DNA of 64,000 nucleotides from Aquificaceae bacterium (GTDB lineage Bacteria > Aquificota > Aquificia > Aquificales > Aquificaceae): assembly GCA_041640635.1 (NCBI GenBank), contig JBEPZX010000004.1, positions 32,279-96,278 of the forward strand, in the 5' to 3' direction. The stretch's first letter is position 1, and the number at the start of each line of letters is the position of its first letter. This document shows positions 6,597 through 8,554 of the stretch, piece after piece. Below the pieces are notes generated by a model. The model had not been told where the DNA came from. It searched no databases and saw nothing but the letters and a program-made list of their open reading frames with translations. The position numbers were made by a program, and so were the translations under genes.

Positions 6597-7409
6597 ATGA
6601 TACTTCTATCACCAGCAAAACTTAACCTAGGGTTGTGGCTTCTGGGCAAAAGACCTGATGGATATCACGAAATATTCACTGTGTTTCATACCGTAAACCT
6701 TTGCGACGAGATAACTATAAAGGAGGGTCCCAAAAAGGTAGAAACGAGTAACCTAATACCTCAAGAAGAGAATCTGGTATATAAAGCCTTGAACCTTTTA
6801 GAAGGGAAATTAGGAGAAGATGTACATTTTAGCGTATACATAAATAAGAAAATCCCGGTAGGCGGAGGATTAGGTGGTGGATCTTCCAATGTCGCTACTG
6901 TCCTAAAAGCCGTAAACAACTTGTTGGGTAATCCTTTACCTTTTGAAGATCTTGTGGATATAGCCAAGAGCGTATCTTCGGATGCTCCGTTCTTTTTATA
7001 TGGAGGCACGGCTATTGGTACCAATAAAGGGGATGTTATTAGACCTATAGAACACATAAATTTGGAATTCACTATAGTATGTCCATCCTTTTCAGCTTCG
7101 AGCAAGAAAGTTTATTCTATGGTGAGCGAGGAAGAATTGACAAAGAATATAGATATTGATAAAATAATAAATTGTATATATAGGCACGAATTTGAAGTTT
7201 TGGAAAATAAACTGGGCGATATAAGTGCGAGAATGTTTCCTCAAGTAGGAGAAGTAGTTAGGTTTTTAAGTGATATGGGTTACAGGCCGTTAGTTAGCGG
7301 GTCTGGATCCTGTGTGTATGTTATAGGTGAGGTTTCAGAAGAAGTAGAAAGGGCTGCGAAGTTACGTAGTTGGCTATTGTATAAAGTGAAGAGTTGGCAT
7401 GGGGTGTAG
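6597..7409 (+). CDS. ispE: 4-diphosphocytidyl-2-C-methyl-D-erythritol kinase
   Basis: SPAKLNLGL, RPDGYHEI, KIPVGGGLGGGSSN GHMP motif, SGSGS. Confidence 0.95.
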   Translation: MILLSPAKLNLGLWLLGKRPDGYHEIFTVFHTVNLCDEITIKEGPKKVETSNLIPQEENLVYKALNLLEGKLGEDVHFSVYINKKIPVGGGLGGGSSNVATVLKAVNNLLGNPLPFEDLVDIAKSVSSDAPFFLYGGTAIGTNKGDVIRPIEHINLEFTIVCPSFSASSKKVYSMVSEEELTKNIDIDKIINCIYRHEFEVLENKLGDISARMFPQVGEVVRFLSDMGYRPLVSGSGSCVYVIGEVSEEVERAAKLRSWLLYKVKSWHGV

Positions 7410-7475
7410 CTCAACTGGCAGAGCATCGGATTTTGGATCCGAGGGTTCCTGGTTCGAGTCCAGGCACCCCAGCCA
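7400..7475 (+). tRNA. tRNA-Gln(UUG)
   Basis: Cloverleaf TGGGGTG...CACCCCA-G-CCA; anticodon arm TCGGA-TTTTGGA-TCCGA; GTTCGAGTC T-loop. Confidence 0.96.
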
Positions 7476-7495: not shown

Positions 7496-8437
7496 ATGAT
7501 AGGATCTATTAAAATCCTAACAGGTAGCAGTAATCCACAGCTCGCTAAGGACGTAGCGACGTACTTAGGTATACCTCTTTCGGATATACTCGTAGGTAGA
7601 TTTAGCGATGGTGAAGTGAGGGTTCAGATAAATGAGTCTATGAGAGGGGAAGATGTATATTTAATACAATCTCTGTCGCCTCCTGTAAACGAAAATATAA
7701 TGGAACTGTTGCTCATTTTAGATGCTCTTAAAAGAGCTTCAGCAGGAAGAATTACTGCTGTTATACCGTACTATGCTTATGCCAGACAAGACAGAAAGGA
7801 TAAACCTCGTGTGCCTATAAGTGCTAGACTGTTAGCCGATCTAATAACTACAGCTGGCGCCCAGAGAGTTGTGGTAATAGAGTTACACTCTCCACAAATA
7901 CAAGGTTTCTTTAGTATACCTGTAGATAACTTACTAGCTTTGAATGTTATTTACGATTACATTAAAGATAAAGTAGATGAAAACACAGTAATAGTTTCTC
8001 CTGATGCAGGCGGTGTAGAAAGAGCTAGACTTTTGGCAAACAAGATTGGCTGTAGTATAGCGATAATATATAAGAGAAGACCTGAACCTAATGTTGCGGA
8101 AGTATTTGACATTATAGGTGATGTAGAGGGTAAAAAGGTTATCATTGTAGATGATATAATAGACACAGCGGGTACGGTTGTTGCTGCATCAAACCTTCTT
8201 ATGTCCAAAGGTGCTAAAGAAGTTATAATAGCAGCAACACACGGATTGTTATCAGGTCACGCAATAGATAGGTTAAAAAATTCCGCTATTAGCGAGGTTA
8301 TAATAACAAATACTATACCGTTAGGTAACAAAGGTGCAAACTTGAACAAACTCAAGGTTCTATCCGTAGCTCCTTTGATAGGAGAGGCTATTAGGAGAAT
8401 ACACGAAGGTTATTCAGTAAGCTCTTTATTTATATAA
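7496..8437 (+). CDS. prs: ribose-phosphate pyrophosphokinase
   Basis: FSDGE, PYYAYARQDRK, VSPDAGG, VDDIIDTAGT. Confidence 0.97.
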   Translation: MIGSIKILTGSSNPQLAKDVATYLGIPLSDILVGRFSDGEVRVQINESMRGEDVYLIQSLSPPVNENIMELLLILDALKRASAGRITAVIPYYAYARQDRKDKPRVPISARLLADLITTAGAQRVVVIELHSPQIQGFFSIPVDNLLALNVIYDYIKDKVDENTVIVSPDAGGVERARLLANKIGCSIAIIYKRRPEPNVAEVFDIIGDVEGKKVIIVDDIIDTAGTVVAASNLLMSKGAKEVIIAATHGLLSGHAIDRLKNSAISEVIITNTIPLGNKGANLNKLKVLSVAPLIGEAIRRIHEGYSVSSLFI

Positions 8438-8445
8438 ACGTAAAA

Positions 8446-8550
8446 GTTGCCCCAAAACCGCCAGTTGGGGACAGGGGCAATCTAAGAGGCGGTATAAAAA
8501 TACCCCAACCTAAACTACGTATGGGTAGTTTAGACAAAAGGTGGGTTTTG
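8446..8550 (+). ncRNA. candidate structured cis-regulatory RNA in the rplY leader
   Basis: Four perfect helices in about 90 nt of a GC-enriched intergenic island: 8447-53/8474-80, 8457-62/8488-93, 8464-70/8503-09, 8510-18/8525-33. Confidence 0.55.
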
Positions 8551-8554
8551 AAAT

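Follow-up and report, generated by a model that had tools for sequence, protein, structure and literature searches.

A pseudotrefoil RNA upstream of rplY in an Aquificaceae genome and its descent from an IS607/TnpB transposon

The prs-rplY spacer and its fold

What a densely paired, self-crossing RNA might be doing directly in front of the gene for ribosomal protein L25 is the question raised by the 117-nt prs-rplY (ctc) spacer of an Aquificaceae genome (G000), located in the window, that is, the whole 64,000-nt stretch of DNA that was analysed. E. coli L25 reportedly autoregulates rplY through its leader, and a preliminary description of the locus proposed an L25 autoregulatory leader or another translational switch. 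The spacer holds all four perfect helices of that description. Checking the window sequence confirmed complements at 8447-8453/8474-8480 (A), 8457-8462/8488-8493 (B), 8464-8470/8503-8509 (C) and 8510-8518/8525-8533 (D), in the strand order A-B-C-A'-B'-C'-D-D' with A, B and C crossing. An ABCABC set of 7, 5 and 7 bp arises in 12/2000 dinucleotide shuffles of the spacer and one of 5, 5 and 5 bp in 656/2000, and the nested minimum free energy of the region has a z-score of -2.96. The stop codon of prs (ribose-phosphate diphosphokinase, 7496-8437, + strand, as are the element and rplY) lies 8-9 nt 5' of helix A, and rplY (50S ribosomal protein L25, 8555-9133) is the 3' neighbour. Between 8300 and 8600 of the window, a sigma-70 promoter and terminator scan called no sense promoter and no terminator. 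The genes form a run ispE-tRNA-Gln-prs-rplY-pth, at whose start (window 6597-7475) tRNA-Gln (7400-7475) overlaps the last ispE codons.

Look-alikes at unrelated loci were found by DNA search, and 27 sequences formed the basis of a covariance model whose specified pairs were limited to helices C and D. The model matches in 113/178 genomes of the phylum, 107/148 of the order and 6/30 of the remainder, with at most 27 candidates scored per genome in the search of the 148. In an alignment of 88 distinct model-aligned sequences, which is biased towards C and D because their pairs were part of the model, helix C pairs in 99.8% of cells with 5/7 pairs changed on both sides, and helix D in 93.3% with 9/9 pairs so changed. 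Helix B, outside the model, pairs in 99.8% of cells; three of its pairs never vary, and its outer pair is flipped from C-G to G-C in 11 of the 88 sequences, all from one genome within the alignment, and again in G019 and G089. Helix A, likewise outside the model, reaches at least 7 bp in 74/76 distinct 5'/3' segment pairs compared with 17% of 5700 swapped ones. More helix C variants occur among copies attached to tnpB. All four helices covary across homologues, bearing out the conserved fold in the translation-initiation region that had been proposed, and G-U pairs together with the constant sense orientation point to RNA rather than DNA.

The individual parts suggest a compact arrangement. 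Helix A (8446-8453 with 8474-8481) combines variable sequence with conserved pairing, and its 5' strand is the 5' edge of the stand-alone module. The A-rich joiner A/B (8454-8457), with its first two A's near-invariant, may lie as a triple strand on helix B (8458-8462 with 8488-8492), which has 5 bp family-wide, the sixth pair of the window copy (8457/8493) not being conserved. The 10-nt A-rich joiner B'/C' (8493-8502) contains five invariant unpaired bases and is a candidate minor-groove triple strand; joiners running along helix B in this manner would account for its invariance. Helix C (8464-8470 with 8503-8509, 7 bp) is followed without a gap by the 9-bp hairpin D (8510-8533), which hints at a coaxial stack. 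Among stand-alone copies the C'/D linker is 0 nt in 135/154, A/B mostly 4 nt, A'/B' mostly 5-8 nt, B'/C' 9-10 nt and B/C 1 nt, the last fixed by the search pattern. An early doubt that A, B and C could form together finds no support in the comparison: their six strands do not overlap, all three pairings are kept and linker lengths are near-fixed, and the three helices may well form at once.

Together, B and C look like a classical H-type pseudoknot in which the middle loop reaches back to pair with the 5' leader. A self-cleaving ribozyme was considered and seems unlikely; the invariant unpaired bases are A and U, and the helix order differs from those of HDV, twister, pistol and glmS. In the alpha-operon leader the ribosome-binding site (RBS) and the start codon lie inside the pseudoknot, whereas in the element they lie outside the fold. 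The two RNAs share the ABCABC helix order and a position at a translation start, but the alpha-leader model (RF00140) does not match the element, whose start codon follows C' by at least 30 nt and which is not tied to one operon. ABCABC folds are termed the 'pseudotrefoil' class with 51 such sequences counted (PMC3390330), and the E. coli alpha-operon leader is called the only known example (PMC3152363).

No Rfam family falls on the knot, in the window or at 20 homologous loci including TnpB-attached copies, nor did RAGATH-18 or any other Rfam transposon-associated motif match within those 20 loci; over 8446-8554, no Rfam ribosomal leader matched at E ≤ 10 (Rfam 15). A search of full-text literature, with most subscription journals outside it, found no description of the motif. 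It was not found in the available portion of PMC8632094, whose motif screen covered Hydrogenobaculum sp. HO and Thermodesulfobacterium geofontis and whose Supplementary File 1, listing each motif, could include it as a mobile or repeat candidate. The same holds for the available portions of PMC4227106, PMC11109978, PMC5737381, PMC10691335, 10.64898/2026.10.21.760802, PMC11061315, PMC10711439, PMC6188088, PMC3390330, PMC3152363 and 10.1101/2023.11.20.567912. The element matches none of the families tested and is, judged by comparative criteria, an undescribed functional RNA.

The family is not specific to rplY. This gene was found in 170/178 genomes of the phylum, and of 70 rplY loci examined (the 30 best matches and 40 picked across genera) three have a model match, those of G000, its congener G045 and G072. 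Among the first 30 loci, the others with prs before rplY have a 15-37-nt spacer and a strong Shine-Dalgarno (SD) sequence; the SD before the window rplY is weak, while most relatives have GGAGG or GGAG. Since the element instead precedes at least 88 gene families, the proposal of an L25 autoregulatory leader is not sustained. That L25 autoregulation arose at least as a local adaptation of the rplY copy seems hardly credible, even though G045 carries the element at the same prs-rplY site, G072 does so with different A and D sequences, and the two same-genus copies share a potential 7-8-bp pairing of the core with the SD region. At 91 bits the rplY copy, itself part of the training set, scores near the top of the family and looks like any other member; other GGAGG genes (ftsH, infC, metE, rpoA) have also been struck repeatedly. 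Across the family, pairing to the SD region is no better than in swapped controls, the best core-to-SD-region helix averaging 6.2 bp with its own partner and 5.9 bp swapped. Both competing pairings of the preliminary description do exist in the window copy but are not family features; that between the 5' strands of A and C reaches 6 bp in 11/87 sequences, and a switch between such alternatives is not supported.

Copies within and outside IS607/TnpB elements

Single-genome scans found 35 copies in G072, 20 in G134, 18 in G019, 16 in G089, 10 in G032 and 2 in G000. Besides the rplY copy, G000 carries L375 (G000:C1:147908-148011, - strand), which precedes glnA and is followed by a strong SD; the glnA copy recurs in G045 (L396) and in L146, whose GlnA is 96% identical to that of G000. 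All 35 copies of G072, a complete 1.5-Mb genome, are stand-alone, two of them in the alpha operon before rpsK and rpoA, and in 10 further genomes, the rest of its genus, TnpB is matched but the model is not. A pattern scan of one-per-species genomes returned at least 121 stretches, some of which are not true elements; among the matches listed (80 named) are Aquificota, Caldanaerobacter, Thermoanaerobacter, Carboxydothermus, Caldicoprobacter, Caldimicrobium, Thermodesulfatator, Dictyoglomaceae and Coprothermobacteraceae. One of 40 pattern matches in a viral collection fits the model, with transposon-type flanks.

A pattern anchored on B and the joiners recovered 259 distinct copies among the collected loci; because it required B and C to pair, and because relatives are not independent, pairing rates in this set are not independent evidence. 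These copies comprise 101 attached ones (a TnpB match or hairpin remnant upstream), 155 stand-alone ones and three dropped for short flanks. A same-strand start codon lies 10-22 nt 3' of D in 147/155 stand-alone and 84/101 attached copies. The terminal ACC[A/T]GG is kept in 86/101 attached versus 4/155 stand-alone copies, the latter lacking TnpB, guide-scaffold hairpin and transposon end while keeping the three-crossing fold.

Many copies overlap the 3' end of a TnpB-like open reading frame of ~550 aa, and some have an upstream TnpA that passes the NF033518 IS607 cut-off. The TnpB matches TIGR01765/TIGR01766 and scores 60 with the guided-TnpB model, against a cut-off of 100. Judged by eye, GGAGG adjoins the left end in 15/17 elements whose left end is readable, L272 included, and at the right end ACCAGG precedes a short spacer, after which there is often a start codon. 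According to PMC6188088 and PMC10711439, IS607 elements exchange at GG without duplication, and PMC11061315 gives a measured AGGAG TAM for a related IS607 TnpB; taken with GGAGG at the left end, this indicates that the element splits SD sequences. Sequence comparison thus traces the module to a thermophile IS607 element with a serine-recombinase TnpA and a ~550-aa TnpB, where it forms the 3' domain of the RNA at the right end.

In intact elements a hairpin lies 5' of helix A, and by eye its loop can pair with the terminal ACCAGG; L249, L251, L376 and L377 carry a compensatory CCAGGT/ACCTGG variant. This pairing fits the canonical reRNA pseudoknot of PMC10711439. Attached homologues have the GG-ended right end of a tnpB element and, in autonomous copies, an IS607 TnpA, neither of which belongs to the window copy. 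There, prs coding sequence precedes helix A in place of the scaffold hairpin, and the right end has decayed (8534-8554, including the spacer), leaving an AGG at 8539-8541 that stems from ACCAGG. Hairpin D derives from the subterminal hairpin of the right end, its sequence having diverged with the pairing kept.

The knot occurs throughout a midpoint-rooted FastTree tree, drawn without clade tests from 43 TnpB fragments, several of whose labels were set right by eye. It is missing from one GG-ended clade, from three copies that have helix A only as a plain hairpin, and from two clades with a non-GG end. The knot thus looks ancestral and optional for the transposon. L384-L388 and L393 carry TnpBs of the same clade on two separate branches; they lack the knot and have a right end other than GG, resembling TCA in L384-L387, apparently through switches of transposase type. 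In the GG-ended lineages L246, L249, L380 and L381 the knot is gone, and still the element often terminates right in front of a start codon, so that this lifestyle does not depend on it.

G032, G089 and G134 preserve intermediate stages of decay. L352 and L354 retain the left end, a tnpB fragment, the hairpin and the knot, and L347, before rplQ, consists of GGAGG, about 27 nt and the knot. In the non-autonomous L356, L357, L360, L362 and L363 of G134, a shared deletion takes exactly the scaffold hairpin and spares the knot and the right end. Both transposon ends, the hallmark of a MITE, are kept in L048, L352 and L354; in the window copy the left end is gone and the right one has decayed. A self-mobile mini-element of ~100 bp, suggested by the 35 copies of G072 falling into subfamilies, was set aside as less likely, because each subfamily resembles a different lineage attached to TnpB and deletion can be followed step by step through its intermediates. 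Two queries found no cognate TnpB in G000 (98% complete), and no TnpB match at E ≤ 0.01 was obtained in G000, G072, G019 or G083, with fragments in G032; a TnpA query of G000 gave just two weak N-terminal matches. The sole Rfam match near any scanned knot is a SAM-I riboswitch overlapping hairpin D and the right end at L167:1222-1334, apparently an insertion into the G-rich motif of the SAM leader itself rather than an SD.

The attached form is close to the IS607 TnpB reRNA/omegaRNA as described for ISFba1 RAGATH-18 (PMC11061315) and ISXfa1 (PMC10711439): an IS607 right end ending in GG, an SD-like motif flanking the left end, which was measured as AGGAG for ISFba1 and is GGAGG in the present elements, and an apical-loop/terminal pseudoknot. 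It differs in having no Rfam RAGATH-18 match and in an RNA that overlaps the frame of a ~550-aa, TIGR01765-type TnpB; the transposon, moreover, can do without its ABCABC domain, which survives by itself as a selected leader of host genes. IStrons, which combine IS607/IS605 with a group I intron, likewise carry an RNA that plausibly offsets insertion cost, according to 10.1101/2023.11.20.567912. Unlike IStrons, the scanned loci have no group I intron match and no sign of splicing, the insertion is into the SD and not a reading frame, and the RNA outlives the transposon. The final element has no terminal repeats or left end, and is a strand-specific pseudoknotted RNA with an invariant core, a fixed position before the start codon and genus-wide vertical conservation. 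It differs in all these respects from MITE-derived UTR repeats (ERIC, Correia/NEMIS, REP), which are multi-copy, transposon-derived and co-transcribed with host genes.

Host genes, Shine-Dalgarno sequences and selection

The gene families behind stand-alone copies number at least 88 (88 protein clusters; 35 scanned, 30 named). They include rpoA, rpsK, rpsT, rplQ, rpmF, tsf, infC, rho, hfq, acpP, ftsZ and ftsH, and further mreB, glnA, glyA, ilvC, metE, ndk, ppa, trxB, htpX, grpE and hsp20.

Genes led by the element have largely lost GGAGG, among them tsf, rpsK, rplQ, acpP, ftsZ, ppa and rho. We examined 48 pairs of element-led genes and 102 pairs of neighbouring genes with their G000 orthologues, taking one gene per cluster, many of them from two genomes. 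Where the G000 orthologue has GGAGG, the motif is kept in 1/33 element-led genes compared with 19/26 neighbouring genes at the same loci (Fisher p 8e-9). The mean SD duplex, computed with the anti-SD motif, is -6.1 kcal/mol for element-led genes versus -12.2 for their orthologues, and -11.1 versus -11.9 kcal/mol for the neighbours. Highly expressed essential genes accordingly run on weak SDs behind the fold over the long term. Insertion at such a site by itself removes the SD mechanically, and the loss alone is not proof that the knot replaces the SD. The SD is partly regained, with GGAG or GAGG in 59/152 stand-alone versus 7/90 attached copies, and GGAGG itself in 13/152 versus 0/90. The unpaired SD energy of stand-alone copies does not differ from that of neighbouring open reading frames (-6.4 vs -5.8 kcal/mol, p 0.13). 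The order is reversed in 10/48 orthologue pairs, with the stronger SD on the element-led side, and in most of these the G000 orthologue looks leaderless. Many G000 genes (mreB, glyA, purE, leuB and others) lack an SD and carry a -10-like box a few bases upstream of the ATG, which suggests that leaderless mRNAs are frequent in this genome.

Comparison of orthologous loci demonstrates strong purifying selection on the A-B-C pseudotrefoil and hairpin D in genomes where no cognate TnpB was found. Among 19 htpX orthologues the core of B, C and joiners differs at 0/5130 pairwise sites, while four-fold sites differ at 51%. Core differences amount to 0/450 for pepA, 0/300 for hsp20, 0/180 each for mreB and trxB, 0/30 for the rplY pair and 37/450 for rpoA. 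The four-fold sites of these genes show 20-55% difference, and A and D vary by paired changes. To avoid counting survivors alone, htpX loci were picked by protein in one genus, and the element is present in 22/24. The two exceptions are a contig without the 5' end of the gene and the most divergent genome, where the empty site has GGAGG.

Possible roles of the domesticated knot

These observations can be joined in a single pathway. An IS607 element inserts at the GG of a host GGAGG, in the orientation of the gene, so that the strong SD stays 5' of the element and the host gene is left with AGG and its old spacer. Stepwise, deletion then takes away the left end, next to it tnpB, and the scaffold hairpin of TnpB, halting at helix A, while the terminal ACCAGG decays. 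The remaining knot, we infer, acts in cis on the downstream gene, most likely as a rigid, heat-stable dock that aids 30S loading at a weak-SD start codon 13-19 nt downstream. The transposon may carry the knot to limit the harm of landing before essential genes, and hosts would retain it; the rplY copy would be one such domesticated copy and not an L25 sensor. Against such a role, the 13-19-nt spacing could be inherited and maintained by the ribosome footprint together with deletion bias. The transposon origin follows from the comparison; to a domesticated cis knot aiding translation initiation we give even chances. We hold more tentatively, at somewhat below even, that the ~90-nt knot is a portable, structure-based ribosome-entry module (IRES-like, or bypassing the SD), which lets the transposon enter the SDs of essential genes without silencing them and has been captured independently at scores of genes, up to 35 per genome.

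The main alternative, less likely in our view, retains the origin and domestication and makes the knot a 5' shield or nuclease roadblock, capping primary or processed transcripts at 60-90 °C and raising mRNA levels to offset the weak SD. Knot-like folds of viral xrRNAs do block 5'-3' exonucleases, the 5' boundary of the module is flush with helix A, 22/67 counted -10-like boxes lie 6-8 nt before helix A of stand-alone copies, a placement that fits 5'-end protection no less well than ribosome loading, and 21/29 stand-alone copies in G072 begin within 30 nt of an upstream sense stop codon. Canonical RNase J (TIGR00649), however, exceeds its cut-off in 1/178 genomes, with no match in G000. Proteins of ~420-490 aa with a metallo-beta-lactamase fold and weak N-terminal RNase J matches are present phylum-wide. 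A plain 5' hairpin is usually enough against RNase E/RppH, so that shielding leaves the invariant unpaired bases and the always-kept hairpin D unexplained. Ribosome loading and 5' shielding can coexist. Viral xrRNAs and the dicistrovirus IGR IRES are likewise compact multi-pseudoknots, whose shape lets them stop nucleases or dock ribosomes; the element differs in being bacterial, chromosomal and transposon-derived, with another helix order.

The remaining explanations appear weaker still. A switch that senses temperature, an ion, a metabolite or a general RNA-binding protein and gates the adjacent RBS would fit the position of the knot, its invariant core and heat-shock-type hosts such as htpX, hsp20 and grpE. 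We consider it improbable, as the hosts are unrelated families with no shared pathway or ligand, no alternative or anti-SD pairing is conserved (two alternatives tested), and the window region has no terminator-like site; the set of host genes can be attributed to GGAGG targeting. It is very improbable that stand-alone copies act through TnpB as a guide RNA or binding site, or that the knot is a TnpB scaffold with no cis role. In intact elements the knot does lie inside the predicted reRNA, overlapping the end of tnpB, but stand-alone copies lack the scaffold hairpin that is the loop partner of ACCAGG and mostly ACCAGG itself, a cognate TnpB was not found in G000, G072 (35 copies) or G019 (18 copies), and sister TnpB elements, known from sequence, do without the knot. 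We give equally little credence to a near-neutral transposon scar, folded merely so that its G/C-rich strands spare the RBS. Position, orientation and SD loss would all follow from the insertion mechanism, but neutrality sits poorly with invariant unpaired joiner bases, a core unchanged at saturated synonymous divergence, and deletions that reach helix A and leave the knot.

The element is small and thermostable, its pseudoknot topology is among the rarest, and covarying examples run into the hundreds, which makes it an immediate target for structure determination. It shows repeated domestication of the RNA of a TnpB system rather than its protein, and suggests a second route, after IStrons, for the survival of IS607 at essential genes. 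Matched genes with and without the module in close relatives offer a natural experiment on structure-driven initiation versus the SD. Should the knot raise or stabilise expression, thermophile expression systems could use it as a portable leader. If the ribosome-entry reading is true, tsf, rpsK, rplQ, acpP, ftsZ and rpoA would start translation from a domesticated transposon RNA.
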